63,924 bases of DNA from the NCBI GenBank assembly GCA_964598135.1, contig CAZRAK010000001.1:1-63924 (forward strand), in the 5' to 3' direction. The notes beneath the pieces are model-generated. The model was given only the letters and a program-made list of their open reading frames with translations. It was not told the DNA's origin and did not search any database. How positions within the stretch are numbered: the first letter of the stretch is position 1; every line of letters starts with the position of its first letter. The position numbers were made by a program, and so were the translations under genes. Source of the DNA: an uncultured Campylobacterales bacterium. Its GTDB lineage: Bacteria > Campylobacterota > Campylobacteria > Campylobacterales > Sulfurospirillaceae. Shown piece by piece: positions 38,907 through 63,924 of the stretch.

Positions 38907-39146
38907 TTAATCTGGTGGCTTATACCCTTTCTCTTTTCTTCTTTTTTCTTCTACTATTTTTTTCTTCTTATTTTCCATCATAACTGCATCTCTTAAAGCT
39001 TCTTCACTATCAAGCAAAGCTCCATCTAAAAACTTATTTTTATCATCAAATTGTCCCGTTCTTACACCCCACAAAAGTGCCCATAAACCAAAACCACCTA
39101 GCAAAAGAGAGGCTCCTAACATCATAGCAATTATCCAGCTACTCAT
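38907..39146 (-). CDS. ccoS: cbb3-type oxidase assembly protein CcoS
   Basis: TM followed by WGVRTGQFDD. Confidence 0.88.
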   Translation of the reverse strand: MSSWIIAMMLGASLLLGGFGLWALLWGVRTGQFDDKNKFLDGALLDSEEALRDAVMMENKKKKIVEEKRRKEKGYKPPD

Positions 39147-39241
39147 ATTAATTTCTCCTTTACCAGAAGCAAAGCTCCTGATAAATTCCTCTCACTAAAG
39201 CTAGTGCTTTGCACAGAGTTTTTCATATTAATTTCTCCTTT
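39143..39241 (-). mobile_element. ~80-bp hairpin element with 19-bp direct repeat of SD-spacer-ATGA; encodes 27-aa linker ORF 39226-39143
   Basis: TCATATTAATTTCTCCTTT at 39143-39161 and 39223-39241; interior homologous to 45643-45779 and 63883-63924; mobility is inferred. Confidence 0.7.
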
Positions 39242-41631
39242 GAGATGAAGTTTATTCTCATTGAGTTTCCTATCACTAATAGCGAACTTAGAGACATGGA
39301 TAGTGCCGCAAAAAGGGGTATAACAAATCCTACCATTGCCAATGGAATTGTAATGGAGTTATATAAAAACGATAAAAACAGATTTTCTTTGATGATTCGA
39401 TAAGTTTTTTTTGATATCTTAAATGCAAAATACAAAGAGTCAAATGTATCATTCATTAAAACTACATCACTCACACTTAGTGCTATGTCAGTTCCACTTC
39501 CTAATGTGATTGCAATTTCACTTTTTGCCAAAGCTAAAGCATCATTTATACCATCTCCCACCATCACTACTTTTTTACCATCTTTTTGCGATTTTTCAAC
39601 TATATTTGCCTTATCACTTGGCAAAAGTAGAGCATAAAAATCTTCAATACCAACTTCTTTTGCGATTTTTTTAGCTACTGCTTCATTGTCTCCTGTTAAC
39701 ATAGCAACTTTGATACCAAGTTTTTTTATCGCTTCAATTCCTTCTTTTGCATCAATCCTAGGAGTATCTTCAAGAGCAAATACTGCTACAACTTCACCAT
39801 TTACAGCAAAATAAAATGTACTAAAATTCCTAAAATACTCTTGTGCTTTAATACCCTCATCTTTTAGCAAATTTAAGTTTCCGCCCACTAAAACATCATC
39901 TCCTCTTCTTGCTTTTATTCCTTTTGCCTCTATGGTTTTGATCTCTTGCAACTCTTCTATATCTTGCATTTTAAAAAACGATGCTACTGCCTTGCTTATA
40001 GGATGAGTAGAGTTTTTTACAAGCGAGTATAGAAGTGATTTATCAAACTCTTTTAGATATAAACTATCCACGATTTCTGGTTTTCCAACTGTTATGGTTC
40101 CTGTCTTATCAAGCATTAAAACATCACATTTTGCCATAGTTTCCAAAAAAGCTGCTTCTTTAAAAAGTATCCCTTTTTTGGCTCCAAGCCCCAAGCCAAC
40201 AAGAGTTGAAACAGGCGTTGCCAAACCTAAGGCACAAGGACATGCGATAACTATAACAGAAATCGCAACTATTAATGACCTCTCAAATGAATTGCCACCA
40301 AAAAACCAAAACAAAAATGTTCCCGCACACAGAAGCAAAATAACAGTTGAAAAATATCCAGACACCACATCTGCTAGCTTTTGAATTTTTGGTTTTTTAT
40401 TCATGGAGTCTTCAAGCAAAGAAGTTATTTTACTAAGCACAGAAGAGTTTATATCCTTTAGTGCTCTATATCTTATAACTGTATCAAGACACACATATCC
40501 ACTTAAAATTTTATCATTTTTTTTCAAAAACAGAGGTGCAGATTCTCCTGTGAGACTAGCTGTGTCAAATGAACCTTCTCCTGAAGTTATCACTCCATCT
40601 ATGACTATCTTTTCACTTGCTTTTATCTCTAAAATATCACCTATTTTAACCTCTTGTGTTCCTAAAAGAATCTTTTCATTATCTCTTAGTACTAAAACCT
40701 CAGTAGGAATTGAGCCATTAAAACTATCTAATCTATCTACTGCTTTTTTCTTGCTTAAAACCTCAAGATATTTTCCAGCAAACACAAAAGTGATAATCAT
40801 CGTAACAGAATCAAAATAGACTTCGCCTTTTTGCGAAAACATGGCATATATAGAGTAAATATAAGCAAGCGATGCCCCAGTAGCTACTAAAATATCCATA
40901 TTTATATATCTATTTTTTATACCATAATATGCACCCTTAAAATAGACTGAACCTGTATAAAAAAGAGTTGGGGTTGCTAGAACAAACTCTGCAAAATTTA
41001 AAATACTTTTAACATCACTCTTCATACCAGTAAAGTACCCAGCATATTGAGCGATTGCAATCCACATAATATTCATAGTTGTAAAAACGCCAACTAAGAG
41101 TTTGGAGTAGTACTCTCTTCTAGTAGCATTTGCTTGGACTTCTTGCATACTTGGGTCATATGGATAGGCATTGTACCCTATACTTCTGATAGCCAGGATA
41201 ATTTGGGAGAGTTTTATGGTATCATTATCCCATACGATTTTTGCTTTACTGTTTGTTTGATTGATGCTAGCTTCTACAATTCCGTTTTTTTGATGCAGAA
41301 TCTTCTCATTTAACCAAACACAAGCTTGGCAGTGAATACCCTCAATAATAAGATAAATCTCATTAAATCCCTCTTTTTGTTTTATATACTTTTGTCTAAA
41401 GCCCTCTAAATCAAACTTTTGAACATCTCCCAAATCTTCTTTTGCAGGGTCTAGCTTTGTATTGCCAAGTTTTTCATAAAAATTATCCAATCCTTCACTT
41501 TTTAAAAGATGGTAAACCCCTTGACACCCCTTGCAACAAAAATATTTCACTCCATTTTTAAAACTGTTGTCTTTAACTAATACTTTTTCATCAAACTCGA
41601 GATGACAATGACTACATCGTCTTTTTTGCAT
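39223..41631 (-). CDS. ccoI: P1B-type copper ATPase for cbb3 assembly (CcoI/FixI)
   Basis: N-terminal CSHC..FCCKGCQGVY, CQAC, CPCALG, DKTGT and GDGIND; upstream of ccoS. Confidence 0.9.
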   Translation of the reverse strand: MQKRRCSHCHLEFDEKVLVKDNSFKNGVKYFCCKGCQGVYHLLKSEGLDNFYEKLGNTKLDPAKEDLGDVQKFDLEGFRQKYIKQKEGFNEIYLIIEGIHCQACVWLNEKILHQKNGIVEASINQTNSKAKIVWDNDTIKLSQIILAIRSIGYNAYPYDPSMQEVQANATRREYYSKLLVGVFTTMNIMWIAIAQYAGYFTGMKSDVKSILNFAEFVLATPTLFYTGSVYFKGAYYGIKNRYINMDILVATGASLAYIYSIYAMFSQKGEVYFDSVTMIITFVFAGKYLEVLSKKKAVDRLDSFNGSIPTEVLVLRDNEKILLGTQEVKIGDILEIKASEKIVIDGVITSGEGSFDTASLTGESAPLFLKKNDKILSGYVCLDTVIRYRALKDINSSVLSKITSLLEDSMNKKPKIQKLADVVSGYFSTVILLLCAGTFLFWFFGGNSFERSLIVAISVIVIACPCALGLATPVSTLVGLGLGAKKGILFKEAAFLETMAKCDVLMLDKTGTITVGKPEIVDSLYLKEFDKSLLYSLVKNSTHPISKAVASFFKMQDIEELQEIKTIEAKGIKARRGDDVLVGGNLNLLKDEGIKAQEYFRNFSTFYFAVNGEVVAVFALEDTPRIDAKEGIEAIKKLGIKVAMLTGDNEAVAKKIAKEVGIEDFYALLLPSDKANIVEKSQKDGKKVVMVGDGINDALALAKSEIAITLGSGTDIALSVSDVVLMNDTFDSLYFAFKISKKTYRIIKENLFLSFLYNSITIPLAMVGFVIPLFAALSMSLSSLLVIGNSMRINFISKEKLI

Positions 41632-41690
41632 AAAAAATACCCCACATATGAAACTAAGAGTGTTATTATATCGTTACTTTCTTATATTTC

Positions 41691-41719
41691 TTGACAAAAG
41701 CCTCTCTTTATTATAGAAT
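41691..41719 (+). promoter_or_regulatory. Sigma70 promoter of rho
   Basis: TTGACA (41691-41696), 17-bp spacer, TAGAAT (41714-41719). Confidence 0.75.
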
Positions 41720-41924
41720 TACACTCGAATTATAAAATCTTTGAATAAAAACTACAAAATTAACAAACTTCTATATTTCGTTATATACAGATACAGAAAT
41801 ATGTTTAACATATAGATTTCTTGCAAAACTATTCCGTTGAGAGCAAATCCTCCCATTGGTTCGAGTCTCTCGTCACAGTTTTACGAAAAATCTGATAAAA
41901 AACTTACAAAAAAAAGAAGGCAAA

Positions 41925-43253
41925 ATGAGCACGAATCAATCGTCGCAAAACAACAAACCAAACAATCACCACAGAAAAACAAGAACGCATGTACCAGTAG
42001 AAGGTTATAAGATAGAAAACCTAAGGGGCATGGGGCTTGAAAAATTAATCGAAATTGCAACTAAACTAAATGTTGAAAATCCAAATGAGCTAAAAAGACA
42101 AGATTTGATGTTTGAGATACTAAAATCTCAAGTCAGCAAAGGTGGTTTTATACTATTTACTGGTATTTTGGAAATTACTCATGATGGATACGGCTTTTTA
42201 AGAACAACTGATACAAATCTCAGTGATAGTACAAATGATGCTTATGTAAGTGCCACACAGGTCAAAAAATTTGCCCTAAGAAATGGTGATATAGTTACAG
42301 GGCAAGTTAGACCTCCAAAAGACCAAGAGAGATACTACGCTCTTCTTAAGATAGAGGCTATCAACTATCTGCCTATGCTTGACAGCAAGAAAAGACCACT
42401 TTTTGAAAACTTAACTCCTGTTTATCCAACCGAACAAATCAAACTAGAATATAATCCTATGAAAATAACAGGTAGAGTCTTAGATCTTTTTACGCCTATT
42501 GGAAAAGGGCAAAGAGGTTTGATAGTTGCACCTCCACGAAGTGGGAAAACTGAACTTATGAAAGAGTTGGCTCACGGCATTGCACAAAATCACCCAGAGG
42601 TCGAATTAATAGTTTTACTCGTGGACGAACGCCCCGAAGAGGTAACTGACATGCAAAGATGCGTAAAAGGTGAAGTATATAGTTCAACATTTGACATGCC
42701 AGCAACTAACCATGTAAGAGTAGCAAATTTAGTAATAGAAAAAGCAAAAAGACGGGTTGAAATGGGCAAAGACATAGTGATACTGCTTGATTCTATCACT
42801 AGACTAGCACGAGCTTACAATACAGTAACCCCCTCAAGCGGAAAGATACTTAGTGGTGGTGTTGATGCAAATGCTCTTCATAAACCAAAAAGATTTTTTG
42901 GAGCGGCTAGAAATATAGAAAACGGTGGAAGTCTCACTATTATTTCAACTGCACTTATCGAAACAGGTAGTAGGATGGATGAAGTAATTTTTGAAGAGTT
43001 TAAGGGTACGGGAAATAGTGAAGTCGTTCTTGATAGAAATATTTCGGATAGAAGAATATACCCAGCTATAAACATAATGAAATCAGCTACAAGAAAAGAG
43101 GAGTTGCTACTAAGTCCAGATAATTTACAAAAGATTTGGGCTATTAGAGCAGCTATTGCTCAGATGGAAGATATAGAAGCTCTAAAATTTTTATATGCAA
43201 AAATGCTGAAAACAAAAGACAATGAAGAGTTGCTTTCTACTCTAAATGACTAA
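41925..43253 (+). CDS. rho: Transcription termination factor Rho
   Basis: [32 protein letters not shown] and DSITRLARA; ATG 41925 after SD GAAGG. Confidence 0.97.
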
Positions 43254-43278
43254 AATAGTGGGAGTTTTTCCACTATTT
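43253..43278. terminator. Hairpin between convergent rho and small lipoprotein gene
   Basis: AAATAGTGGGAG / TTTCCACTATTT inverted repeat. Confidence 0.6.
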
Positions 43279-43389
43279 ACTTTTTGATGCTCTATGAAAT
43301 GGGTTTTGATAATCTGTTTTTTCGCAACCAGCAGAAAAAGCCACTACAATAATCATCAACAATAAAAAAACAAAATTTTTTTTTATCAT
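43273..43389 (-). CDS. Small putative lipoprotein, 38 aa (MIKKNFVFLLLMIIVVAFSAGCEKTDYQNPFHRASKSK)
   Basis: SD GAGGT, basic n-region, hydrophobic h-region, lipobox-like FSAG-C; candidate TGcTATTAT -10 upstream. Confidence 0.7.
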   Translation of the reverse strand: MIKKNFVFLLLMIIVVAFSAGCEKTDYQNPFHRASKSK

Positions 43390-43449
43390 AACTACCTCTA
43401 ATTTTTTTTAAGATATAATAGCATAAAAATCTAAAGATAAGGTTTTAAT

Positions 43450-45066
43450 TTGTCACAAGTACTTGCTCTAAAATATCGACCAAAATCATTTGATGGAATT
43501 ATTGGTCAAAATTCTGTCACTCAAACTCTATCATTAGCATTAAATCAAGACAGGCTATCTCATGCTTATCTATTTTCTGGGCTAAGAGGGAGTGGGAAAA
43601 CTTCTACTGCTAGGATTTTTTCAAAAGCTCTTATATGTGAAAAAGGTCCTACTGCCACGCCTTGTGAAGAGTGTGAAAATTGCAAAATGGCAAATGAAAA
43701 TCGTCACATAGACATAATAGAGATGGACGCAGCAAGTAGCAGAAAAATTGATGACATAAGAGAGCTTATAGAACACACAAAGTACAAACCAAATAGTGCA
43801 AGATATAAGATTTTTATCATAGATGAAGTGCATATGCTTACAAAAGAGGCCTTTAATGCCCTTTTAAAAACATTAGAAGAACCTCCTAGTTATGTAAAAT
43901 TTATATTAGCAACTACTGATCCATTAAAACTTCCACCAACAATACTATCAAGAACTCAACATTTTAGATTTAAACAAATTGGACAAAAAGATGTAGTAAA
44001 CCACCTATCTCATATACTAAATTTAGAAAACATGAAGTATGAGATAGAGGCTTTAGAAATGCTTAGTCGTGCAGGCAATGGCTCTCTTCGAGATACCCTA
44101 ACCCTACTTGACCAAGCTATGATATTTTCCAAAGGAGACATAACAGCTCCAAGTGTTGCCTCTATGCTAGGACTACTAGATCCCAAAGAGTTGGATTTGA
44201 TATTTGAAACCATACTCAATAAAGACAAAATAAAGATGCTTGAAATCCTAAAAAAGCTTGAAACATATGAGTGTGAAGTAGTTTTAGATGAAATTATAGC
44301 TTATCTAAAATCTGCTTTTTTTAAGAGTGAGAGTAGATTTTCCACACTTTTATATGAGAGATTTTTTAGAATTCTAAGTGAAGCAAAGAATCTTCTTTAC
44401 ATAAACGCTGACAACTCTTTTGTATTGTCTTTGGTGTTTTTTAAGATGATTGAAGCTACTAATATAAAAACTATAGAAGAGATAATAGAAAATTTAGAAA
44501 ATGAAAAATTTAGAGTTGGACAAAACGAAGTGTCACCTATGACAAATACAAATCAAGGAGCCCCAACTCTAAAGAAAGAGATCATGATACAAGAAAAAAG
44601 AGTTCCGATATATGAGAGTGAATTTAGCAAATTGATTACACTTCTTAAAGATAGAAATATTGATGTTGGCAACTGCTTTGAGCAATCCATCTCTTTTATC
44701 GGCTTTGAAAACAAAACTCTTACTATGAACTCACATGCCAATGAAAATTGCAAAAAAATACTTCGTCATGCCTCAAGTATCATCAAGCATTTCGTACAAG
44801 AAGTATTTGGAATTGAGACAATCATCAAAATGCAAAAAAGCTCACCAAAACATATAGAAAAGAAAAATGAGTCAAAAGAAGTTCAAGCAAAATTAAAACC
44901 CGAAACACCCAATCATGAGGGTGAAAATTGCGGAAGCTGCGTTGCAGAGCATTTAGCAAAAGATGTAAAAGAGATAGACGCAAACGAAATTTTAAGCGCT
45001 CCTTTTATAAAAAAAGCAACAGAGCTGTTTGATGTAAAAAAAATAGAGATACATCCTAAAGTTTAA
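43450..45066 (+). CDS. dnaX: DNA polymerase III gamma/tau subunit
   Basis: LALKYRP, HAYLFSGLRGSGKT, DEVHML and FNALLKTLEEP; TTG start. Confidence 0.96.
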   Translation: MSQVLALKYRPKSFDGIIGQNSVTQTLSLALNQDRLSHAYLFSGLRGSGKTSTARIFSKALICEKGPTATPCEECENCKMANENRHIDIIEMDAASSRKIDDIRELIEHTKYKPNSARYKIFIIDEVHMLTKEAFNALLKTLEEPPSYVKFILATTDPLKLPPTILSRTQHFRFKQIGQKDVVNHLSHILNLENMKYEIEALEMLSRAGNGSLRDTLTLLDQAMIFSKGDITAPSVASMLGLLDPKELDLIFETILNKDKIKMLEILKKLETYECEVVLDEIIAYLKSAFFKSESRFSTLLYERFFRILSEAKNLLYINADNSFVLSLVFFKMIEATNIKTIEEIIENLENEKFRVGQNEVSPMTNTNQGAPTLKKEIMIQEKRVPIYESEFSKLITLLKDRNIDVGNCFEQSISFIGFENKTLTMNSHANENCKKILRHASSIIKHFVQEVFGIETIIKMQKSSPKHIEKKNESKEVQAKLKPETPNHEGENCGSCVAEHLAKDVKEIDANEILSAPFIKKATELFDVKKIEIHPKV

Positions 45067-45075
45067 TACACTGTA

Positions 45076-45642
45076 TTAAACTTGAACTCTAGCGTTCATT
45101 GCTTTTGAAAGAGAAAGCATATCTACATTTTCCAGATGTACACCTGTCGGAACTCCTTGAGCTATTTTTGTAAATTTTATGTCTAAATCTTTTAGATTTT
45201 CCTCTACAAAAAATATAACAGCATCATTTGATATGGAAGGTGTAAGCGCAAAAATCATCTCTTTTACTCCCTTGTCTGCTCTATCCTTTAAATTTTCCAT
45301 ACTCTTTTTTTCTAAATTTACTAGCACAAAGTATTTCCCATCAAAAAGACTATTCTCCTCCAAAATAAAGATATCCTTTGCATTTTCCACAATGCAAAGC
45401 TTTTTATCATCTCTTTGTTCATCTAAACAAATCTCACATATCTCATTTTCACTCAAGCCCCCACAAGTATGGCATTTTTTGATGGATTTTACTGCACTTT
45501 CTATTGAATTTGACAATTTCATCGCTAAAAAAGTATCATTTAGTATAAGATGATAAGCAAATCTAAGAGCTGATTTTTTTCCGATAGTAGGTATAGACTC
45601 AAATGCTTCAACTAAATTATTGAATTTTTCTAAGCGTTTCAT
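45076..45642 (-). CDS. recR: Recombination mediator RecR
   Basis: IPTIGKKSALR, C4 zinc finger and Toprim domain (IAQGVPTG). Confidence 0.93.
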   Translation of the reverse strand: MKRLEKFNNLVEAFESIPTIGKKSALRFAYHLILNDTFLAMKLSNSIESAVKSIKKCHTCGGLSENEICEICLDEQRDDKKLCIVENAKDIFILEENSLFDGKYFVLVNLEKKSMENLKDRADKGVKEMIFALTPSISNDAVIFFVEENLKDLDIKFTKIAQGVPTGVHLENVDMLSLSKAMNARVQV

Positions 45643-45803
45643 TCAACTGTTTCCTTTATCAAAAGCAAAGCTCTTGATAAATTCCTTGCACTAAAGCTTC
45701 GTCTTACGACGAGAAAAAAACTATCAACTGTTTCCTTTATCAAAAGCAAAGCTCTTGATAAATTCCTTGCACTAAAGCTACTCATAATCTCTTCTTTTTT
45801 CAT
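45639..45803 (-). mobile_element. Tandem pair of the SD-associated hairpin element (81-bp period); encodes 54-aa linker ORF between racS and recR
   Basis: 56-bp identical direct repeat 45643-45698 / 45724-45779; stop-free frame from ATG 45803 to TGA 45641-45639; mobility is inferred. Confidence 0.7.
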
Positions 45804-47026
45804 ATTATAATCTTAAATTGATGGATTTTTTTATCTTCAAAATATCGATACTCTAGTACAAAATTATGAAACTGTATTATATTGTTTACTATATACAATC
45901 CTAACCCTAAACCTTTTTTCAGGTTTCCCGAAACAAAAGGTTTGAAATACTCCTCTATATCCAAAGGTAATTTCTCACCTATATTTTTAAAAATTATAGC
46001 ATTATTTTCAGTTTTTACCTCGACACTATTGTTACTGCTGTGTTTTATAGCATTATCCATCAAATTTTTTATAGCTAATGCCATCAATTCAAAATCTGCC
46101 AATATTATGCATTCGCTATCAATATCAACTTGAACTACCTCATCTCTTCTTTCTGATTCTAACATCAACAAATCAATGCTGTGTTCCATTATATAAACTA
46201 GGTTATACTCTTCAAAATTTGGAGTGTAGCTTTTGGCAACTAGTTGTTCTATTTTGGAAAACTCTCTTATTAGGATATCTAACCTTTCAAATATAGTTAT
46301 AAGCCTATTTTTGGCTTTTTCATCCTCAAGCATTTCAGAGACAATCCTACCCTTGCCTATTGGAGTTTTTAATTCATGCATAATAGTTCTTAGAAAAAGT
46401 TGTCTTGAATTCATAAGTGCTGCAATCTTTTTTACAGCCCCGTCAAATTCATTTGCTACTTCCGCTATCTCATCATCTTGGTCACTTTTGCAATCTATAT
46501 CCATATTGCCGCTAGCAAATTCTCTTATCTTGTCTTGGAGCTCCTTTAAAGGCGAAATACTTCGTAAAATTGAGATATACATGGATATAAAAACAATCAA
46601 AGCTATCACAAAACCCAGCCATAATTGCCTATTATTTTTGCTTGGTGCCGTACTTTCAAGCAAAACACTTGCCATCATATTATCAACCATCAAATAGTAT
46701 TTTTCATTATATATTATAGAGGAAAAACGATTAAAATTTATAGTTTTTTGGTAAAGTACTGTTCCTTGTGTTAAAACTGCAGTTTTAAGAGTTGGATTTT
46801 CTACTTTTTTAAGACCAAAAGTGTGAAAATATTCCTCGATATTTCTTGGTGTATAATTATTTTTATAAAGAGTAAAAAGATAATTTATAGATTGAAATTG
46901 GCTCTTTTTCATACTCTCTATATTATTCTCTTCTTGATACTTAAAAAGCAAAATAAAAAACATTCCTAAAAGTATCAAAGAAAAAACAAAGATAATAGTA
47001 ATTTTGGTACTTAATGATTGCTTCAT
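45800..47026 (-). CDS. racS: Sensor histidine kinase (RacS/ArsS-like)
   Basis: 2 TM, HAMP, MHELKTP, NLMDNAIKH and GLGLGL; between racR-like gene and recR. Confidence 0.75.
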   Translation of the reverse strand: MKQSLSTKITIIFVFSLILLGMFFILLFKYQEENNIESMKKSQFQSINYLFTLYKNNYTPRNIEEYFHTFGLKKVENPTLKTAVLTQGTVLYQKTINFNRFSSIIYNEKYYLMVDNMMASVLLESTAPSKNNRQLWLGFVIALIVFISMYISILRSISPLKELQDKIREFASGNMDIDCKSDQDDEIAEVANEFDGAVKKIAALMNSRQLFLRTIMHELKTPIGKGRIVSEMLEDEKAKNRLITIFERLDILIREFSKIEQLVAKSYTPNFEEYNLVYIMEHSIDLLMLESERRDEVVQVDIDSECIILADFELMALAIKNLMDNAIKHSSNNSVEVKTENNAIIFKNIGEKLPLDIEEYFKPFVSGNLKKGLGLGLYIVNNIIQFHNFVLEYRYFEDKKIHQFKIII

Positions 47027-47703
47027 CCGATTAATTTATATCCTATTCCTCTTACCGAATGTATATATTTTGGATTTTTTGAGCTATCACCTATCTTACT
47101 TCTTAGCCTCCCCATAATTACATCTAAACTTTTGCTCCCTTTATCTTTCAAAGAGCTACAGTTGTAAACGAGCTGTTCTCTTGATATTGAATATCCTATC
47201 TGTTTAATCATATATGACAAAATCTCGTACTCTGCAGGGGTAAGATTTAATGGTTCATTTTTTAAGAAAATTTGATGTCTCTTTTCATCAACTCTAAAGT
47301 CACTATCGCTGTTAGCTCCACTATTTTCATTTAAGGCATTAGTTTTTTTATATCTTCTTATGAGGCTTTGAATACGGGCATACATCTCTTTTGGATCATA
47401 CGGTTTTGGTAGATAGTCATCAGCTCCAATTTGAAGCCCTATAACCTTATCGCTTATGTCGCTTCTAGCTGAAGATATGATTATGGGTATATTGTATTTT
47501 TCAACTACTTCTTTACAAACATCTAGACCATCTATACCTGGAAGTGTGAGGTCAAGTATCAAAAGATCATAATTTTTTATACCTGCGCTAAGCCCAAGAT
47601 ATGGGTCTTCGTAGTTTGTTATCTTTATATTATATTTTGCTAAATATTCACCTAAAATCTCTGCAAATTCTGTATCATCTTCAATCATTAGTACATTTAT
47701 CAT
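47023..47703 (-). CDS. racR: OmpR-family response regulator (RacR-like)
   Basis: MINVLMIEDD, DLTLPGIDG, GADDYLPKPYDPKEMYARI and winged helix; start at second Met after SD AAGGG. Confidence 0.8.
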   Translation of the reverse strand: MINVLMIEDDTEFAEILGEYLAKYNIKITNYEDPYLGLSAGIKNYDLLILDLTLPGIDGLDVCKEVVEKYNIPIIISSARSDISDKVIGLQIGADDYLPKPYDPKEMYARIQSLIRRYKKTNALNENSGANSDSDFRVDEKRHQIFLKNEPLNLTPAEYEILSYMIKQIGYSISREQLVYNCSSLKDKGSKSLDVIMGRLRSKIGDSSKNPKYIHSVRGIGYKLIG

Positions 47704-47779: not shown

Positions 47780-47781
47780 AC

Positions 47782-55423: not shown

Positions 55424-55482
55424 TTTATATCAAAACATTGAATGACTTCATTGGTTTGTATTAACTAAAGAAAGGATATAAA

Positions 55483-55692: not shown

Positions 55693-55705
55693 TAGGAGGT
55701 GTGAG

Positions 55706-58021
55706 ATGCATAAACACGAACACAAACAAAAACATGAGCATGAACATAAAGAAAATGAATATTGCGTAGACGATTCTTGCGATATAGTTGGACACAAATT
55801 TTATACTTGCCCTATGCATCCAGAGATTCACCAAAAGAGTCCTGGAAACTGTCCAAAATGCGGTATGACATTGGAAAAAGAGGTAGAAGCACTACCAACA
55901 GTATCGACAAAATACACTTGCCCAATGCACCCAGAAATCATAGAAGATAGTCCTGGAAACTGTCCAAAATGCGGTATGTCACTAGAGCCTATCACCGTTG
56001 AGGCAGAGGATGAAAATGAAGAATTAGTTTATATGACCAAGAGATTTTGGGTTAGTGTTATACTAGCATTTCCAGTTTTTTTGATAGCCATGGTTGCTGA
56101 TTTAGCTCCAAGCTACTTGCCCACAAATTTTACACATCAGGGTATACAATGGTTTGAATTTATACTTGCTTCACCTGTTGTGCTTTGGGCTGGATGGCCA
56201 TTTTTTGTACGAGGATACAACTCTATTAAAACTTGGAATTTAAATATGTTTACTCTTATCGCCATTGGCGTAGGAGCGGCTTATATTTATAGTCTAATCG
56301 CACTATTTTTACCTGAAATTTTTCCTCCTCTAATGCAAGGGAAAGAGGGCTTAGTAGCAGTATATTTTGAAGCAGCAGCAGTTATCACAACACTTGTTCT
56401 TTTAGGTCAGGTTTTAGAATTAAGAGCTAGAAGCAAAACAAATACAGCTATAAAAACCCTGTTAAATCTAGCACCAAAGATAGCTCATCGTATCGTAGAT
56501 GATAATGGAAATGAAGAGGATGTTAATTTAGAGCAAATAGTAGTCGGTGATAAACTAAGAATCAAACCAGGTGAAAAGATACCCATTGATGGAGTTGTGG
56601 TAGATGGAAATAGCAACATTGATGAATCTATGATAACGGGTGAGCCTTTGGTAGTGACAAAATTAAAAGGTGATTTGGTAATAGGGGCCACTTTAAATAA
56701 AAATGGAACCATAATAGTAGAAGCCAAAAAAGTTGGAAGCGACACAATGCTCTCTCAAATAGTTCAAATGGTATCACAAGCACAACGCTCAAGAGCCCCA
56801 ATTCAACAACTAGCAGATACGGTTTCAAGCTTTTTTGTACCAGCTGTTGTGATATCTTCCGTCTTAGCATTTATCGGCTGGTGGTTTTTAGGACCAACAC
56901 CTCAATTAGCCTATGCAGTAGTTGCTGCCGTTGCTGTTCTCATCATCGCTTGTCCTTGTGCACTTGGTCTCGCAACTCCTATTTCTATAATGGTAGGAAC
57001 TGGTAGAGCTGCACTTTCAGGTATATTGATAAAAGATGCAAAAACACTAGAGAGGATGGAAAAAGTAGATACCTTGGTTGTTGATAAAACAGGAACTCTT
57101 ACAGAGGGAAAACCAAAAGTTACGAGTCTACATATAGAAGATGGTTTTAGCCAAAATGATATCTTGTTGTACGCAGGAAGCCTAGAGCGAGCAAGCGAAC
57201 ATCCCTTGGCTGAAGCAATTATTGAGTATACCAAAGAAAAAGGTATTGCTTTAGTTAATGTAGAAAATTTTGAAGCGGTGATTGGTAAAGGCATAATTGG
57301 AAATATCAATGAAAAACAAGTAGTTATCGGTAGTGAAAGTTTTCTAGAAAGCTTAGATACTTCTGTTGAGAATATAAAAGAAAAAGCCAACATCTTACGA
57401 AAAGAGGGTAAAGGTGTTGTTTTTATGGCTGTTGATGGAAAATTTAGTGCGATTATCGGCATTGAAGACCCTATTAAAAAAACTTCAGCACAAGCTGTTA
57501 AAAAATTGCAAGCTGAGGGCATAAAAGTGGTTATGTTAAGTGGGGATAACGAGACTACTGCAAAGGCTGTAGCTTCAAAATTAAATATTGATGAAGTTTA
57601 TGCAAATGTTCTACCTGATGGCAAAGCAAATGTCGTAAACAGATTAAAAGATTCTGGCGCTATTGTCGCTATGGCAGGAGATGGCATCAATGATGCACCC
57701 GCTCTTGCTGCGGCAGATGTCGGAATTGCTATGGGAACAGGTACGGATGTCGCCATACAAAGTGCTGGAGTCACTTTAATCAAAGGCGATTTATTGGGGA
57801 TTTTAAAAGTGATAAAACTTAGCCGTGCTACTATGAAAAATATAAGACAAAATCTATTTTTTGCCTTTATTTATAATAGTGCGGGTGTTCCTATTGCAGC
57901 AGGGGTTTTATACCCTGTTTTTGGAATACTTTTATCTCCTGTTATCGCAGCAGCAGCTATGAGTTTTAGCTCAGTTTCTGTTATTGCAAATGCTCTTCGC
58001 TTAAAAAATGTAAAAATTTAA
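55706..58021 (+). CDS. copA: Copper-exporting P1B ATPase with His-rich tail and two YTCPMHP domains
   Basis: CPCALG, DKTGT, SEHP, GDGIND, YN..P and MSFSS. Confidence 0.9.
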   Translation: MHKHEHKQKHEHEHKENEYCVDDSCDIVGHKFYTCPMHPEIHQKSPGNCPKCGMTLEKEVEALPTVSTKYTCPMHPEIIEDSPGNCPKCGMSLEPITVEAEDENEELVYMTKRFWVSVILAFPVFLIAMVADLAPSYLPTNFTHQGIQWFEFILASPVVLWAGWPFFVRGYNSIKTWNLNMFTLIAIGVGAAYIYSLIALFLPEIFPPLMQGKEGLVAVYFEAAAVITTLVLLGQVLELRARSKTNTAIKTLLNLAPKIAHRIVDDNGNEEDVNLEQIVVGDKLRIKPGEKIPIDGVVVDGNSNIDESMITGEPLVVTKLKGDLVIGATLNKNGTIIVEAKKVGSDTMLSQIVQMVSQAQRSRAPIQQLADTVSSFFVPAVVISSVLAFIGWWFLGPTPQLAYAVVAAVAVLIIACPCALGLATPISIMVGTGRAALSGILIKDAKTLERMEKVDTLVVDKTGTLTEGKPKVTSLHIEDGFSQNDILLYAGSLERASEHPLAEAIIEYTKEKGIALVNVENFEAVIGKGIIGNINEKQVVIGSESFLESLDTSVENIKEKANILRKEGKGVVFMAVDGKFSAIIGIEDPIKKTSAQAVKKLQAEGIKVVMLSGDNETTAKAVASKLNIDEVYANVLPDGKANVVNRLKDSGAIVAMAGDGINDAPALAAADVGIAMGTGTDVAIQSAGVTLIKGDLLGILKVIKLSRATMKNIRQNLFFAFIYNSAGVPIAAGVLYPVFGILLSPVIAAAAMSFSSVSVIANALRLKNVKI

Positions 58022-58032
58022 ACACTAATATT

Positions 58033-58071
58033 TTAACTCACTTTATTGTTTTTTACAATAGAGTGAGTTAA
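58033..58071. terminator. Long hairpin downstream of copA
   Basis: TTAACTCACTTTATTGT-TTTTT-ACAATAGAGTGAGTTAA. Confidence 0.6.
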
Positions 58072-58236
58072 CCGTTGGTTTACCTTAACTTCATATACTT
58101 TCATCAGCTAATATATTTCTCTTTGAAAAATATATGGTAAAGGTATTGCCAAGCATCTTTCCCATATATTTTTCCAAACCTCTATCTTAAAACTTTCATC
58201 TTATCTTTATCTAAAAAGAGTTATCATCCTTGTATC

Positions 58237-59226
58237 ATGAAGTATTTTATAAAATTACTGAATAAAAAGATAAAATGTCTGCTATGTCGGCACTATTGCA
58301 AATTAAGAGATAAACAAATTGGAATTTGCGGTGTAAATGAAAATAAAAATGGCAAACTAAAAACCCTTGTTTATGCTCACCCTAGTGCACTTAATCTTGA
58401 CCCAATCGAAAAAAAACCTATCTATCACATCCTTCCAAACTCTACCTCTTTGTCTTTTGGGACAGTTGGGTGTAATTTCAAGTGCCCTTTTTGTCAAAAT
58501 TGGGAAATATCTCAAGAAAGAGCAATAAATAAAGAGATGAAAATAAGCCCTGAACAGATGGTAGATTTGGCAATCAAAAATAGTGCTGAATCTATCGCTT
58601 ACACATATAATGAACCAACTATTTTTTATCCATATGCAAAGGATATTGGTTTGATTGCCAAAGAAAAAGGAATCAAAAATATATTTGTCACAAATGGATT
58701 TGAGTCCGAAGAGCTCATACAAGATATGCAAAGTTGGCTTGATGGTGCAAATATTGATTTAAAAAGTTGGGACGAAAATTATTATAAAAAATTCTTAAAA
58801 GGTGGACTAACTGCTGTAAAGGAGACAATTAAAAGTATGGTCAAACTTGGCATTTGGGTAGAAATCACCACTCTTATCATAGAGGGTAAAAATGATAGTG
58901 ACGAAGATTTGAAGGGAATGGCTGATTTTATAGCAAACGAATTAGGTAGACATGTGCCTTGGCATCTAAGTGCTTTTCATCCTAGTTATAAGATGCAAAA
59001 TCACCAAAGAACAAGCACAAAAACACTTAAAAGAGCCTACAAAATAGCAAAAGATGCTGGACTTTGGTATATCTATCTTGGCAATACAAATATAGATACC
59101 AATACCATTTGTCCAAAATGTGGTACAATTTTAATTCAAAGAGGTGGCTACGGAATGAACAAGGTTGATATAATCAATGGAGTTTGCCCAAAATGCAGTA
59201 GAAAAATAGAAGGTATATGGCAATGA
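58237..59226 (+). CDS. amrS: AmmeMemoRadiSam system radical SAM enzyme
   Basis: DPIEKKP, CNFKCPFCQNW and YTYNEP; adjacent to MEMO1 homolog. Confidence 0.9.
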   Translation: MKYFIKLLNKKIKCLLCRHYCKLRDKQIGICGVNENKNGKLKTLVYAHPSALNLDPIEKKPIYHILPNSTSLSFGTVGCNFKCPFCQNWEISQERAINKEMKISPEQMVDLAIKNSAESIAYTYNEPTIFYPYAKDIGLIAKEKGIKNIFVTNGFESEELIQDMQSWLDGANIDLKSWDENYYKKFLKGGLTAVKETIKSMVKLGIWVEITTLIIEGKNDSDEDLKGMADFIANELGRHVPWHLSAFHPSYKMQNHQRTSTKTLKRAYKIAKDAGLWYIYLGNTNIDTNTICPKCGTILIQRGGYGMNKVDIINGVCPKCSRKIEGIWQ

Positions 59227-60020
59227 GTACAAGAAAAACTATTGTTGCGGGACAGTTTTATCCGCAAAAACCAAAAGAATTAAAAGAGACTTTTTTAGCA
59301 TTTGAAAAAATCATCAATGAAAATATCAAAGATAAAGATACTCTAAGTATAAAATCAAATGTTATTATAGTTCCACACGCAGGCTACATCTATTCTGGGC
59401 TCACAGCTGACATCGCTTTTAGACTTTTAAAAAATTATAAACCAAAAACTATTGTTGTCATAGGTCCTAGTCACCGTGTTTATCTTGATGGCACAAGTGT
59501 TTCTTTGCATGATACATACGAAACACCACTTGGCTTGGTTCGTATTGATAAAAACTTAGCAAAAACTCTTATAGAAGAATTTGATATGCAGTTTCTTAAA
59601 GATGCTCACAGTGAACACAGCACAGAAGTGCAAATGCCTTTCATAAAAAATTATCTACCAAATGCCTCTGTAGTAGAGCTAGTATATGGAAAAGAGAGAC
59701 CAAAAAATCTCGCCCTTGCAATCAAATTAATCTTGCAAAACCCAGATAATGCAGTAGTAATTAGCACAGATTTAAGTCACTATTATAGCCTTAATAAAGC
59801 AAATGCACTAGATAGCTTATGCCTAAAAGCCATACAAGACTTAGATTCCAAAAAACTACACAACAATTGTGAGGCCTGTGGGAAAATAGGTCTAGAAGCC
59901 ATATTGATATATGCAAAAAATACAAACTTAAAGCCAAAACTACTAGATTACAGAACAAGTGCTGACACAAATGGCGATAAAACACAAGTAGTAGGATATA
60001 CAAGTATAGCATTTGTCTAA
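59223..60020 (+). CDS. amrB: AmmeMemoRadiSam system protein B (MEMO1 family)
   Basis: VAGQFYP, PHAGYIYSG, GPSH, EHSTEVQMPF, STDLSHY and ACG. Confidence 0.9.
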   Translation: MSTRKTIVAGQFYPQKPKELKETFLAFEKIINENIKDKDTLSIKSNVIIVPHAGYIYSGLTADIAFRLLKNYKPKTIVVIGPSHRVYLDGTSVSLHDTYETPLGLVRIDKNLAKTLIEEFDMQFLKDAHSEHSTEVQMPFIKNYLPNASVVELVYGKERPKNLALAIKLILQNPDNAVVISTDLSHYYSLNKANALDSLCLKAIQDLDSKKLHNNCEACGKIGLEAILIYAKNTNLKPKLLDYRTSADTNGDKTQVVGYTSIAFV

Positions 60021-60050
60021 TATTTAATATATTTATGTTAGAATATCACT

Positions 60051-60554
60051 ATGAAATTTTTAGAAAACACAAAACTCAAAGATAAGATATTAAAATTTGT
60101 ATTTAAAACCTCAAATCAACCTATAAGATTTAAGGATTTACTAGTTGCAAATGCCTACCATAATGAGGGCATGCATGTAGACCCTGAAAAGCTAGGTTTT
60201 AGAATGATAATTAAAAATGCTTATATAATTTATGCAATAGTTTGTACTATTGTTTTTATACCACTACTCGCTTTAACCCACAAACTCTTTGAAAATATAG
60301 ATTTTCATGCTTCAATTATAAGTACAGCGGTAATAACTTCTGCTTTTTTTATAGGTTTTCAATATTTTCATGCTTGCATAAAAGATAAAATGGCAAAAAG
60401 TAGAATCAAGGAAGCTTGGTCCATACATTTTCCATATTTTAGCTACGAGAAATATAGTAAAAAAGTGGAAGATATTTTTAATACTGCTATGAAGAAAGAG
60501 ATTAAAAAAAATGATCTACAATCTTATGTGATGAGCAAATTAGCCGAAGAATAG
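60051..60554 (+). CDS. Hypothetical 2-TM membrane protein
   Basis: Clean ORF, two hydrophobic segments, own promoter. Confidence 0.7.
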   Translation: MKFLENTKLKDKILKFVFKTSNQPIRFKDLLVANAYHNEGMHVDPEKLGFRMIIKNAYIIYAIVCTIVFIPLLALTHKLFENIDFHASIISTAVITSAFFIGFQYFHACIKDKMAKSRIKEAWSIHFPYFSYEKYSKKVEDIFNTAMKKEIKKNDLQSYVMSKLAEE

Positions 60555-60848
60555 CGGGTTTGCAACTCTTTTTTATTTTTATCTATTTCTAAATAATTTT
60601 TTTAATTAAAGTTACTCTTATTTTTTTTATAATTTTTAAAAAATCTTTTTTGCCCTATAATTTGTTTCACATATTTTTATCTATTCAAACAAAAAAATAA
60701 CAGTTTAAATCCTATTAAATAAGAATTATAAAATAAAAAATAAAAGTTATAAACACTATTTAACATACTTTTTTGCCCCTTTTTTCATTTACTTTGCATT
60801 TATATTTCAGGGGTAGAATTCTCTCGAAATAAAAAAAAAGGAATAAAA

Positions 60849-61169
60849 ATGAAAAAAATTTCATTGTCATTAGCATTTCTAGTTATTAGTTCTACTTATG
60901 TATTTGCAAGTAGTCCTATCTCAAATGGTGAGAAAATATACAAATCTAACCAGTGTGCAAGTTGTCATGGTGTAAATGCAGAGAAACATGCATTAAATTC
61001 ATCCAAGATTATTAAAAATATGTCTCTTGATAGTCTAATTGATGAACTTAAAGAGCATAGAGAACAAAAATCTACAGAAGTTTTAGCAAAGGCTATGGAT
61101 ATTCAAGTAAAAGGCTTCACTGACGAACAGATAGAAGATGTATCAAAATACATTAAAACATTAAAATAA
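60849..61169 (+). CDS. Periplasmic monoheme cytochrome c (c553-like)
   Basis: Signal peptide, CASCH and distal Met (AKAMDIQV). Confidence 0.88.
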   Translation: MKKISLSLAFLVISSTYVFASSPISNGEKIYKSNQCASCHGVNAEKHALNSSKIIKNMSLDSLIDELKEHREQKSTEVLAKAMDIQVKGFTDEQIEDVSKYIKTLK

Positions 61170-61185
61170 TATACCATTATTAAAA

Positions 61186-61213
61186 CAAGATAAGAAATAC
61201 TTTTCTTATCTTG
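61186..61213. terminator. Hairpin between convergent cytochrome c and polA
   Basis: CAAGATAAGAAA-TACT-TTTCTTATCTTG. Confidence 0.65.
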
Positions 61214-61225
61214 CCAACTTATTAT

Positions 61226-63874
61226 TTACTTGAGCGCTCCCCAATTCTCTCCTATCTCAACAGATACTTTTAAAGGCACTTTTAACTTATAGATATTTTC
61301 CATAATCTCTTTTGCTTTTTGTGAAAAATCTTTAGCAAACTCGGTTTTCACTTCAAATATAAGCTCATCATGAATTTGCAATAGAAGTTTTGCTTTATCA
61401 TCTATGATTGTATCCATAATTTTATTCATAGCCATCTTAATCAAATCTGCTGCACTTCCTTGGAAAAGTGTGTTTACAGCCTCTCTTAGATATGAGGCAT
61501 GAAGCATAGCATTTGCATTTTCAAAATCAAAATACCGTCTTCGCTCCAAAAGTGTTTGAGAGTAGCCTTTTTCAAGTGCAGTTTTTCCTACTTGATGCAA
61601 AAACTCTTTGACTGTTGGAAATGAAGCAAAATAACTCTCTATATACTCTTTTGCCTCTTTTGTACTCACATGTATAGTTTGTGAAAGTTTTCTTGAGCCC
61701 ATGCCATATAAAAGTCCAAAGTTGATGCTTTTTGCAACTCCTCTTTTGGCTTTAGCTTTAGCTTCACCAAATATCTTCAAAGCTGTTTCATAATGTATAT
61801 CTTTTCCTTCATTAAAGGCATTCAACAAAGCTGTATCTCCACTAAAATGAGCCAATAATCTCAACTCTATTTGTGAATAGTCAATCCCTACCAAAGAGTA
61901 ATCTTTTTTAGCTACGAAACCAACTCTTACCTCTCGCCCAAGCTCAGTTTTTACTGGTATATTTTGAAGATTTGGATTTTTTGAACTAAGCCTTCCTGTT
62001 GCAGTACCAGTTTGTAAAAATGAGGTGTGAATTCTACTATTTTTGTCTTTTAGCCCAAGCTTTAACAATGGCTCTATATAAGTTGATTTTAATTTATATA
62101 TCTCTCTGTATTCGAGTAATTTTGGGATTATTGGATGCTCATCTAAAAGCTCATTTAACACTTTTTCATCTGTACTATATCCCGTCTTGGTTTTTCTTAC
62201 AACTCTCAATCCCAAACCCTCAAAAAGTACCTTTCCTAATTGCTGAGTAGAATTTACATTGAACTCTAAACTACTTAAATCATATATATCTTGCTTCAGA
62301 TTTTCTATAGTTATTAAACTTTTTTTAAGCATAACTTCAAGATACCTTACATCTATCTTTATACCCTCTTTTTCCATCTTCATAAGTGTTTTTATAAATG
62401 GAAATTCTAAATTTCTGGCAAGTTCAAGTAAATCTGGTTCTAAGAAATCCACTATCTTATTGTAAACCCTCAAAGTCATCCATGCATCTTCACTAGCATA
62501 TTTGCAAGCTGACTCTATATCTACTGTATCAAATGTTTCACCTTTTTTTACTGTATCTTTAAATTTTATCATAGGATGATTAAAAAATCTCAAAGACAAG
62601 GTATCAAGTCCTATATTTTTTTCTGGATTTAAAAGCCAAGCTAAAATCATCGTATCAGCATATATAGGTAAATCAGAAAAAACAAAATTGTTTTTTACTA
62701 CTGCTAAATCATATTTCAAATTTTGTCCAACAACTTTACATGTGAATATTTTTCTTATTGCCTCTTTTGCAATATCTAATCCAACCTGTTCACCAACACC
62801 CAAGTAACTGTGGGCAATAGGAACATAATATGCCTCTTGTGCATTTGAGGCAAATGAAAAACCAACTATCTTTGCATTGTAAGCATCTAGTGAGTTTGTT
62901 TCTGTATCAAATGCTATAAGTGAGTTTGGTTTTAGACTTTCTAAAACATCAAAAAGTTTCTGTTTTGTATTTAATAAAATTGCTCTAAAAGTATCTGTTG
63001 CCTCTATCTTTTGCTTGGATTCAACATTTAACTTTTTAAGTATATTTTTAAGTTCATATTTTTGCAACTCTTCAGCTATATGAATTAGTGGTTGTCCACT
63101 TGGGAAATAAAAACTCTCAAACTTATCGGATATATCCAAGTTATTATATAAAACCACAAGCTTTTTACTTAAAAATGCATTTTCTTTACTTTCAATGAGA
63201 AGTTTTTGTGCTCTTTGATTTCTTATTTTATCAATATTTTCATATATATTTTCGAGTGAGCCAAACTCATCCAAAAGAGTTTTTGCTCCTTTTGCTCCGA
63301 TACCTTTAACTCCAGGGATATTATCAGCACTATCACCGACAATACTTAAATAATCCCCTATAATACAAGGATGAACTCCAAACTTTTCAAGACATCTTTG
63401 CTCATTTATATCTGATTTTTTGATAGGGTCATATAGGGTTACTACATCATCATCTATAAGCTGATAAAGGTCTTTATCGTGACTTACAATTCGCACCTTT
63501 ATATTATTTTTTTTGGCAAACTCTACTGCTGAGGCTATCACATCATCTGCTTCATAACCCATCTTAAAATAGCACTTAAAGCCCATCTTTTCTATCCAAG
63601 ATATCGCAATAGGGAGTTGTTTTTTCAAATCTTCTGGAGTTTGGGGTCTTGTTGCTTTGTAGTTGTTGTCGATATCATGCCTAAAAGTTTTGCCTTTTGC
63701 ATCAAGTGCAAAAAGTATATAATCACTTCCTAGCTCACTCCTTAATGAGTATATAAAATTTGCAAACCCAGTCAAAAGACCTGTTGGGAAGCCATCCTTA
63801 TTTCTTAAATTTGGCAAAGCAAAATAGTTCCTAAAAAAAAATCCGAATGTATCTATAATGGTTAATGTTTTCAT
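61226..63874 (-). CDS. polA: DNA polymerase I
   Basis: 5'-3' exo (YEADD, DKD, GDSADNIPGV), 3'-5' exo (DTET), TGRLSS..PNLQNIP, DYSQIELR and QIHDEL. Confidence 0.97.
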   Translation of the reverse strand: MKTLTIIDTFGFFFRNYFALPNLRNKDGFPTGLLTGFANFIYSLRSELGSDYILFALDAKGKTFRHDIDNNYKATRPQTPEDLKKQLPIAISWIEKMGFKCYFKMGYEADDVIASAVEFAKKNNIKVRIVSHDKDLYQLIDDDVVTLYDPIKKSDINEQRCLEKFGVHPCIIGDYLSIVGDSADNIPGVKGIGAKGAKTLLDEFGSLENIYENIDKIRNQRAQKLLIESKENAFLSKKLVVLYNNLDISDKFESFYFPSGQPLIHIAEELQKYELKNILKKLNVESKQKIEATDTFRAILLNTKQKLFDVLESLKPNSLIAFDTETNSLDAYNAKIVGFSFASNAQEAYYVPIAHSYLGVGEQVGLDIAKEAIRKIFTCKVVGQNLKYDLAVVKNNFVFSDLPIYADTMILAWLLNPEKNIGLDTLSLRFFNHPMIKFKDTVKKGETFDTVDIESACKYASEDAWMTLRVYNKIVDFLEPDLLELARNLEFPFIKTLMKMEKEGIKIDVRYLEVMLKKSLITIENLKQDIYDLSSLEFNVNSTQQLGKVLFEGLGLRVVRKTKTGYSTDEKVLNELLDEHPIIPKLLEYREIYKLKSTYIEPLLKLGLKDKNSRIHTSFLQTGTATGRLSSKNPNLQNIPVKTELGREVRVGFVAKKDYSLVGIDYSQIELRLLAHFSGDTALLNAFNEGKDIHYETALKIFGEAKAKAKRGVAKSINFGLLYGMGSRKLSQTIHVSTKEAKEYIESYFASFPTVKEFLHQVGKTALEKGYSQTLLERRRYFDFENANAMLHASYLREAVNTLFQGSAADLIKMAMNKIMDTIIDDKAKLLLQIHDELIFEVKTEFAKDFSQKAKEIMENIYKLKVPLKVSVEIGENWGALK

Positions 63875-63882
63875 TTAATGTC

Positions 63883-63924
63883 CCCTTTAGCAGGAGCAAA
63901 GCCCCTCCTAAATTCCTCGCGACT
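63883..63924 (-). repeat. Copy of the SD-associated hairpin element upstream of polA (cut by window end)
   Basis: Minus strand GCGAGGAATTTAGGAGGGGC-TTT-GCTCCTGCTAAAGG(GG)acattaaATG. Confidence 0.7.

Follow-up and report, generated by a model that had tools for sequence, protein, structure and literature searches.

A start-codon hairpin repeat in Sulfurospirillaceae and related Campylobacterota: a likely non-autonomous mobile element

Why should similar hairpin sequences of about 80 bases stand directly before the start codons of ccoS, recR and polA in one bacterial genome? The question is raised by the window analysed here, a stretch of 63,924 nucleotides from an uncultured bacterium of the Campylobacterales (family Sulfurospirillaceae; GenBank assembly GCA_964598135.1, contig CAZRAK010000001.1, positions 1 to 63,924 of the forward strand). 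An earlier note on this DNA had described four copies of the repeat and had read them either as a non-autonomous element or as a spreading cis-regulatory RNA module, specifically occupying translation initiation regions inside operons. We propose, with a probability of roughly 0.7, that the repeat is a non-autonomous mobile element that is probably kept harmless by a Shine-Dalgarno (SD) sequence of its own and, at about half of its sites, by a reading frame that would relay ribosomes to the gene downstream.

Position, spread and turnover of the repeat

All four copies were recovered at the places described, on the minus (gene-sense) strand, with covariance-model scores of 85, 73, 48 and 37 bits, but the family proved to be much larger. 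In the host assembly (1.40 Mb, 31.8% GC, 64% complete) an iterated hidden Markov model (HMM) search of the whole genome at E<0.05 found 77 repeat units in 52 arrays, mostly 77-84 nt in unit length, against no match at E<=1 in the reversed genome; the covariance model gave 62 matches. Looser merging of the HMM matches leaves 50 sites, among which one self-duplicated contig enters twice. In six of the 50 the 3' side is lost to a gap or the end of a contig, a sign that assemblies break at the element, and 44 can be assessed.

Every one of the 44 lies in sense orientation ahead of a gene, and at 41 the start codon of a real open reading frame (ORF) falls within -6 to +12 nt of the end of the match, compared with 8.2% of random intergenic positions. 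Two of the other three stand 22-24 nt before an ATG and the third is a variant hairpin with its tail right at the ATG. The upstream neighbour is co-oriented at 29 sites, divergent at five and off the contig at seven, while none of the 46 convergent spacers of at least 40 bp holds a site. The repeat is thus not confined to operon interiors: at five of the 34 sites that have a neighbour upstream, the two genes diverge. In other genomes an ATG or GTG opening an ORF follows 68 of the 78 pattern matches with enough flank (control 0/68). These counts, with the vacant orthologous junctions given below, support the proposal of a non-autonomous element that occupies translation starts. Downstream genes begin with ATGA in 82 of 93 cases, compared with 322 of 693 SD-bearing genes.

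A strict sequence pattern is present in 29 of 61 genomes and the covariance model is positive in 35 of 41 genomes of the family, in which copy numbers run from 0 to 101, with 18-101 within the host's own genus and 0-2 within another; the genome samples (pattern, model and holder titles) overlap one another. All 80 of the 114 pattern matches that were listed bear Campylobacterota titles, and the holders among them include Sulfurospirillum arcachonense DSM 9755, Sulfurovum and Sulfurimonas. A phylum-wide covariance search, in which 38 candidates per genome were scored under strict filters and a blank means that the element was not found there, recovered it in seven of 121 genomes. Phage and plasmid collections gave short chance-level matches only. 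No Rfam family exceeded its gathering threshold in the window, the best match (E 0.6) lying at the ccoS copy. We found no description of the repeat in the literature searched; the Sulfurovum consensus in the accessible part of PMC3733652 is published as a figure, so an earlier description is possible.

Comparison of orthologous junctions, which the earlier note had proposed as a check, revealed vacant sites in many relatives at recR, ccoI-ccoS and elsewhere. The recR junction is filled in three of 30 relatives and ccoS in six of 30 loci of relatives; with metagenome contigs included, 10 of 86 sequences have the element between ccoI and ccoS, and where this junction is empty there is mostly an overlapping or abutting stop/start pair. 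On a tree of 82 ccoI-ccoS rows built without the insert, the nine filled rows require at least seven gains or losses, all forced by well-supported branches, and 16 of 500 shuffles gave as few changes. An empty ortholog was available for 61 filled sites, with alignable flanks in 31. Alignment reaches to within 8 nt of the ATG in 28 of these 31 pairs, and ATG(A) is retained upstream of the element in 12 of them, as judged by eye between distant relatives; the cleanest pair is locus L129 against host contig C36. Identical stems occur at separate loci of the host genome, and genes filled in two genomes often bear different stems and modules. Of the 15 sites of genome G010 for which an ortholog is available, 12 have the element in the host too (manual count), compared with a background occupancy of about 3-4%. 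This pattern of turnover fits reinsertion at a recreated ATG, recombination between units and retention of a tail that serves as SD.

An unrelated TGTC-type palindromic pair stands at the ccoI-ccoS junction of a distant relative (metagenome contig L349).

Specific occupation of translation initiation regions holds for most copies but not for all, because the element is also found in helix P12 of RNase P RNA. A form with a GAAGAC tail lies there in sense orientation in eight of 27 aligned rnpB genes (from 30 loci, three of them unparsed). A related insert is present in rnpB of G017 and short relics in G029 and G171; the host rnpB is empty. An ATG follows all eight P12 copies but only one of 16 insert-free P12 helices (manual count), and as this RNA is untranslated, the ATG would be a sequence target or a part of the element and not only the outcome of selection on translation. 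Some of these copies are closed by TGTC...GACA pairing, and a 5' GTC motif occurs in three of 213 subtype-A units, all three in RNase P.

Other exceptions to the start-codon rule were seen in the complete genome G013, which has four copies with non-SD tails arrayed ahead of a ribosomal-protein leader region (L376:5281-5566) and a weak antisense copy between tRNA genes (L378:1501-1550). In G065 the two copies of a duplicated gene 3' end of about 50 bp enclose a non-SD element, as at an integration site (L281:1420-1640); we take the gene to be lepA-like.

Fold, tail and reading frame

Each unit opens with a variable 5' module that includes a small hairpin. A core of the form GC(T/A)(T/A)YAGT..GAGGAA follows, then a long hairpin whose length hardly departs from 27 nt, and last a tail in which a G-rich word and a 5-7-nt spacer precede the ATG. 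The short hairpins, core, three long stems and SD position agree with the earlier description of the window copies, as do the unit spacings of 80 nt (ccoS) and 81 nt (recR) and the lack of a small hairpin in the upstream recR copy. The polA copy is present and incomplete as described, but its core is the variant AGTCGCGAGGAA; it is interrupted by an assembly gap (a run of N after base 63924), beyond which lies another tandem copy.

In a structure alignment of 52 units of one subtype, hand-chosen from 79 listed, 91% of paired cells can pair compared with 75.5% in shuffles, and double-sided changes are seen in seven of the 12 long-stem pairs and three of the four small-stem pairs. Among 211 distinct long hairpins picked by Watson-Crick pairs only, G-T pairs outnumber A-C by 148 to 42 (23 to 7 in the host genome alone), which makes the sense strand the better-folded one. 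The sense-strand structural bias that had been claimed is therefore borne out by both the G-T excess and the covarying stems; it does not distinguish RNA from single-stranded DNA.

The purine words flanking the long hairpin also covary: at one position pair 256 of 292 units have G-G and 24 have T-A. Either a contact at the junction or nothing more than linkage within subfamilies may lie behind this. The word before the hairpin and the tail after it vary together in a mirror-like manner (G/G or T/A; G/G or A/A). Readings of these words as a K-turn, triplex or repressor site were dropped as the covariation follows subfamilies. The long hairpin itself is open to rearrangement: on contig C15 (5823-5894) and at L369 and L374 of G007 it is turned inside out around a 35-nt insert and still has an SD tail at the ATG. 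A 36-nt cassette occupies its loop at host positions C23:8423-8521, C36:13182-13271 and C3:2701-2799 and also at L130 and L158; at C23 and C36 the relay frame described below remains open.

A conserved fold of this kind could belong to a domesticated cis-regulatory RNA module, a translation enhancer or the site of an RNA-binding protein, that tunes initiation downstream. Covariation on the sense strand, the fixed 27-nt hairpin between covarying purine words and the repeated filling of the same genes would all suit such a module, but the 40 downstream proteins scanned belong to unrelated families (including ribulose-phosphate epimerase, P-II, FeoA, FliQ, ClpX, AIR carboxylase and GcvH) and share no function, and close relatives lack the element at the same genes. 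Occupancy is patchy, the copy number spans 0 to 101 within one family, and tandem arrays, copies in RNase P RNA and the lack of an Rfam match also speak against a module; the covariation of the flanking words tracks subfamilies and is not independent evidence. We give this part of the earlier proposal little credence.

The tail offers a simpler link to translation. In the host genome GGGGAC stands ahead of two of 1234 element-free genes, whereas GGGGACA occurs 28 times inside arrays; as the word is so rare before genes without the element, the SD of the tail must mostly be borne by the element. The view that a native SD and spacer are duplicated was accordingly rejected as a general rule, the usual duplication being ATG(A). 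For ccoS the SD could be of either origin, and the 19-nt repeat upstream of its element is either the native SD or the leftover tail of an earlier copy. Among 293 units overall, tails with GGAG or GGGG precede a gene in 208 of 241 units and those with GAAG, GATG or GAAA in one of 33, the latter units being inner members of arrays or placed elsewhere. Folding predictions leave the SD core mostly unpaired (mean probability 0.66 over 217 units), and lone tails stand at otherwise empty sites (argF-like and ccoS). On these data, some 3-4% of genes in these bacteria would owe their ribosome-binding site to a repeat.

A second link to translation, absent from the earlier description of the copies, is a short relay frame. 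The 27-codon frame at ccoS and the 54-codon frame at recR begin on the stop codon of the gene upstream and end on the ATG of the gene downstream, with -4 overlaps. Such a frame was found at 20 of 40 sites in the host genome, 16 of them with the -4 overlap and eight joined to the upstream stop; several of the 20 sites that lack a frame also lack their 5' flank. In the subtype with the 5' module ATGAA..ACAGA, the unit length preserves the frame in 39 of 48 units, and coupling is seen in 35 of 48. The frame-preserving lengths are 80 and 83 nt, and two different frames run through the core. Conservation extends to the frame and not to the predicted peptide. In annotation the element generates spurious ORFs of 27-28 amino acids, and it can pass for a riboswitch or a gene-specific leader.

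From these features a mechanism can be sketched. The top strand would fold into a branched structure and be recognised, as single-stranded DNA or RNA, by a factor acting in trans. A unit would join at an A-rich ATG(A) site, leaving the native SD and ATG upstream and recreating the target downstream, so that arrays could grow, and recombination between tandem units and between loci would renew the interior while the site stays occupied. With its native SD displaced, the gene would come to depend on the tail of the element and start-codon copies would be retained as by a ratchet, deletions leaving lone tails; where present, the short frame would hand ribosomes on to the gene.

Several observations weigh against this reading. 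Insertion has to be read from distant pairs; an ATG(A) duplication is not evident in 19 of 31, and at 30 of the 61 filled sites alignment failed. No movement was seen: in contigs of four DNA or unlabelled sequencing runs no joint that would remove the element appeared, but these contigs are interrupted at the repeat. No RNA run was listed among the holders of the element, which has no bearing on its expression. The scattered presence could also reflect an old insertion lost many times, and seven of the eight RNase P copies share a stem and may stem from one event. The relay frame is coupled in only 18 of 53 units of the other subtype, there is no 5' ATG in 127 of 213 units of that subtype, coupled frames occur in nine of 27 of a wider taxon sample, and the shuffle null of 9.5% is lenient because shuffling destroys the duplicated ATG. 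As to the fold, helix P1 and a 2-bp hairpin show no double-sided change in the 52-unit alignment, related stems are not independent, which weakens both the G-T and the covariation counts, and the G-T excess could come in part from strand-biased mutation in transcribed DNA. Furthermore, the element makes essentially no use of the 855 intergenic ATGA words at which no ORF begins. A plain ATGA target is therefore insufficient to explain the specificity and either a longer target or the ratchet is required, neither of which is proven.

If the ratchet did most of the work, insertion itself could be loose, at A-rich ATG words in general, with the start-codon pattern arising through retention of those copies that took over an SD or settled in an RNA helix while genic copies were purged and neutral ones deleted. 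The non-SD variants away from start codons (in RNase P helix P12 and at the leader-region array and tRNA spacer of G013), the existence of lone tails and the shared occupancy of G010 sites far above background would be accounted for in this way. Some young neutral copies would then be expected, but none of the 44 sites lacks a downstream gene despite the presence of young identical copies, and the repeated independent gains at ccoI-ccoS suggest a preference for the site. We regard pure retention as unlikely.

Going beyond the mobile element that we favour, it is possible, and we put it forward tentatively as something that we would doubt rather than expect, that a structure-defined element recognises the start context itself, be it SD plus ATG or a ribosome in the act of initiating on nascent mRNA. 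A host factor rather than any known transposase would then move it, and it could no longer be deleted once it had taken over the ribosome-binding sites of housekeeping genes.

Candidate mobilisers and known repeats

In agreement with the earlier note, no transposase family was reported for the 65 of the 87 listed ORFs of the window that were scanned (26 NCBIfam, 39 Pfam), the others being mostly short overlapping frames. Our first guess for a mobiliser would be an HUH (Y1) enzyme acting in trans. The gene of RAYT or IS200-IS605 type flanked by the motif that had been suggested was sought and not found: the element flanks none of 52 loci (51 Y1 and one small GIY-YIG), a point that also counts against our reading, and it is a one-sided neighbour at four of the 52. 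The survey covered 51 of 60 Y1 matches, in genomes that are incomplete. Y1 genes are found in 34 of 38 genomes searched and their presence does not track copy number, as all nine searched genomes of the genus with 0-2 copies have Y1.

Three other enzymes were set aside. Nearly all GIY-YIG matches are ORFs of UvrC length, with one 125-aa ORF that has no element nearby; reverse transcriptases (in 0/1 and 1/5 genomes) and IS110 (in 0/1 and 2/5 genomes) are sporadic.

Among Y1 enzymes, the TIRYT type merits consideration. On contig C13 (L071:946-1605) the host encodes a 219-aa Y1 HUH transposase of this type, with inverted repeats of about 26 bp, beside an ATPase-like ORF. The small gene pair next to it is presumably toxin-antitoxin-like. 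If TIRYT (subclass 2.1) were the mobiliser, the SD-like tail would be a reused GGGGWSAS motif, with which TIRYT inverted repeats are described in the accessible parts of PMC3733652 and PMC6006769. The commonest tail, GGGGACAG/A, agrees fully or almost fully with this motif, the inverted repeats of the single host gene contain GGGACAG, related genes of G008 and G011 carry AAAGGGGACAG repeats, and Y1 genes are as widespread as stated. Yet at TIRYT loci the motif is inverted and points to the gene, whereas the element has a single, outward-facing motif; none of the Y1 loci has the element on its flanks; many tails read GGAGA, GAAGA or GATGA; and Y1 is present throughout the 0-2-copy genus but was not found in G034, which has 41 copies in a 90% complete assembly. 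A role for TIRYT thus appears distinctly unlikely.

Contig C24 (L506:20-986) encodes a chromosomal integron integrase, and IntI is present in 21 of 42 family genomes. Long branched attC-like sites accompany these integrase loci, some of them at attI without a gene in front. The attC consensus consists of RYYYAAC...GTTRRRY boxes with crossover at G|TT. That the element is an attC-like substrate of this integrase might be suggested by the host's own IntI (TIGR02249), by a tail variant containing GTTAAAT, which fits GTTRRRY, and by a median of 42 copies in 20 IntI-positive compared with 2 in 21 IntI-negative genomes. When the element-poor genus is left out, however, the medians become 42 and 30.5, and related genomes are not independent, so that lineage confounds the comparison. 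The attC-like sites beside the integrases differ in sequence from the element, its junctions lie at ATG and not at G|TT, and G035 has IntI but no copy. We consider a link to the integron very remote.

The earlier note had looked to repetitive extragenic palindromic (REP) sequences and miniature inverted-repeat transposable elements (MITEs) as the nearest kind. The closest precedent is instead the mycobacterial interspersed repetitive unit (MIRU; Supply et al. 1997, as summarised in the accessible parts of PMC12548453 and PMC3184786), which is described as inserting at start codons with 4-nt direct repeats and as containing a mini-ORF coupled by -4 overlaps; start-codon targeting is thus not new in kind. 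As far as these summaries go, both repeats measure 40-100 bp, occupy about 40-50 intergenic sites per genome within operons and have no known transposase. Both insert at start codons in gene orientation (the element at 41/44 sites, with 28/31 pairs aligned to within 8 nt of the ATG); the 4-nt direct repeat of MIRU may have a counterpart in the ATG(A) kept upstream in 12 of 31 distant-relative pairs, and its small -4-overlapping ORF in the frames at ccoS, recR and 20 of 40 sites, fewer elsewhere. Unlike MIRU, the element belongs to another phylum and a host of 32% GC, has a fixed branched fold with covarying stems and has non-SD variants inside RNase P RNA; it keeps its own SD constant and has an ORF at only about half of its sites. 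Its lifestyle would match that of MIRU, likened by description and not by sequence, and because the SD rather than the ORF is constant we do not file it as a MIRU.

Other repeats are further removed. Neisseria REP2 and Borrelia IR-A/IR-B resemble the element, in the text available of PMC3184786, in being placed directly upstream of genes and in combining two stem-loops with a ribosome-binding site. REP2 is, however, 120-150 bp long, bears a promoter and marks co-regulated genes (PMC3184786), whereas the element lies mostly inside operons before unrelated genes; a consensus scan of one site, the recR copies (45600-45850), found no sigma-70-like promoter. The CGTC/TGTC REPs (Rickettsia RPE-4/6, dRS3) are, according to the accessible part of PMC3733652, short palindromes without a dedicated transposase, as here, but single 8-9-bp hairpins that form mostly head-to-head dimers downstream of genes. 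The element forms head-to-tail arrays and its start-codon copies lack the 5' GTC motif, although the TGTC/GACA closure of some RNase P copies recalls CGTC-type REPs. With the targets of TIRYT or TnpA-Y1 subclass 2.1 enzymes, which are common in these genomes, it shares a GGGGWSAS-like motif (PMC3733652; PMC6006769, as far as accessible), not arranged here in inverted pairs nor flanking such a gene. GTAG REPs and REPINs with their REP-associated tyrosine transposases (RAYTs) are likewise small hairpins in tens of copies and tandem clusters (PMC3733652, PMC6006769, again in the parts accessible). The element differs in having no conserved GT[AG]G foot in the 52-unit alignment, no inverted dimers among the listed sites, no site between convergent genes and no flanked RAYT (0/52 loci). 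From integron attC it is set apart by its junctions at ATG and by the different resident attC-like sites. Terminal inverted repeats as in MITEs were not seen, start-codon copies having no end-pairing motif; the scan for insertion sequences covered IS110 only.

With the present family, the means by which MIRU-type repeats move and arrive at start codons can be tested outside mycobacteria. Its covarying copies number in the hundreds, genera with 0-2 copies stand beside others that have up to 101, gains have recurred at defined junctions, and one of its hosts, Sulfurospirillum arcachonense DSM 9755, is in culture. The analysis contributes four points: tails come in SD and non-SD forms, copies lie in RNase P RNA, unit lengths can preserve a frame, and the independent changes at one junction have been counted. 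If the element indeed reads the start context itself, which we would doubt rather than expect, it would together with MIRUs represent a general, unnamed class of 'start-codon parasites' that rewrite translation-initiation regions and even RNase P RNA.

Features of the window and further observations

The features of the window copies and of the genes behind them are collected below, with the RNase P loci of other genomes. The gene identities rest on PF03597 (FixS family) for ccoS, TIGR00615 for recR and an NCBIfam scan for polA.

Table 1. Repeat copies, relay frames and adjoining genes (window positions unless a locus is named)
Feature	Position	Strand	Remarks
Relay mini-ORF through ccoS copy, 27 codons	39143..39226	-	ATG overlaps ccoI stop (-4); TGA overlaps ccoS ATG (-4)
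Small hairpin GTGC-AAA-GCAC, ccoS copy	39204..39214	-	
Conserved core AGCTTTAGTGAGAGGAA, ccoS copy	39186..39202	-	3' part predicted to pair with pyrimidine tract before small hairpin
Long hairpin, 27 nt, ccoS copy	39159..39185	-	12 bp, TTT loop
Tail with SD (AAGGAG) and spacer, ccoS copy	39147..39160	-	abuts ccoS ATG (39146-39144)
19-nt direct repeat of SD-spacer-ATGA upstream of ccoS element	39223..39241	-	either native SD or leftover tail
ccoS (FixS family), downstream gene	38907..39146	-	
Relay mini-ORF spanning both recR copies, 54 codons	45639..45803	-	overlaps ArsS-family kinase stop (-4) and recR ATG (-4)
Downstream recR copy	45643..45722	-	small hairpin 45712-45699, core 45698-45682, long hairpin 45681-45655, tail GGAAAC
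Upstream recR copy, no small hairpin	45723..45779	-	long hairpin 45762-45736 identical to that of downstream copy
recR, downstream gene	45076..45642	-	TIGR00615
polA copy, cut by assembly gap	63875..63924	-	partial core, long hairpin 63912-63886, tail GGGGAC before ATG (63874-63872)
polA, downstream gene	61226..63874	-	
Possible decayed copy at EngA/Der GTPase start	3416..3471	+	weak; long hairpin and tail only; E 0.022
Possible decayed copy at SIS-domain gene start	35094..35160	-	weak; E 0.05
Copies in RNase P helix P12	L287:1371-1776 (G015), L390, L392, L394, L395, L399, L401, L402		

Two minor observations may be added. Contig C44 of the host genome has the same element and gene start at both of its ends, inverted, which is probably an assembly artefact. 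In the window, an 89-aa ORF at 50228-50497 matches the C-terminal part only of a YgjP-like metallopeptidase domain and is possibly a gene fragment.

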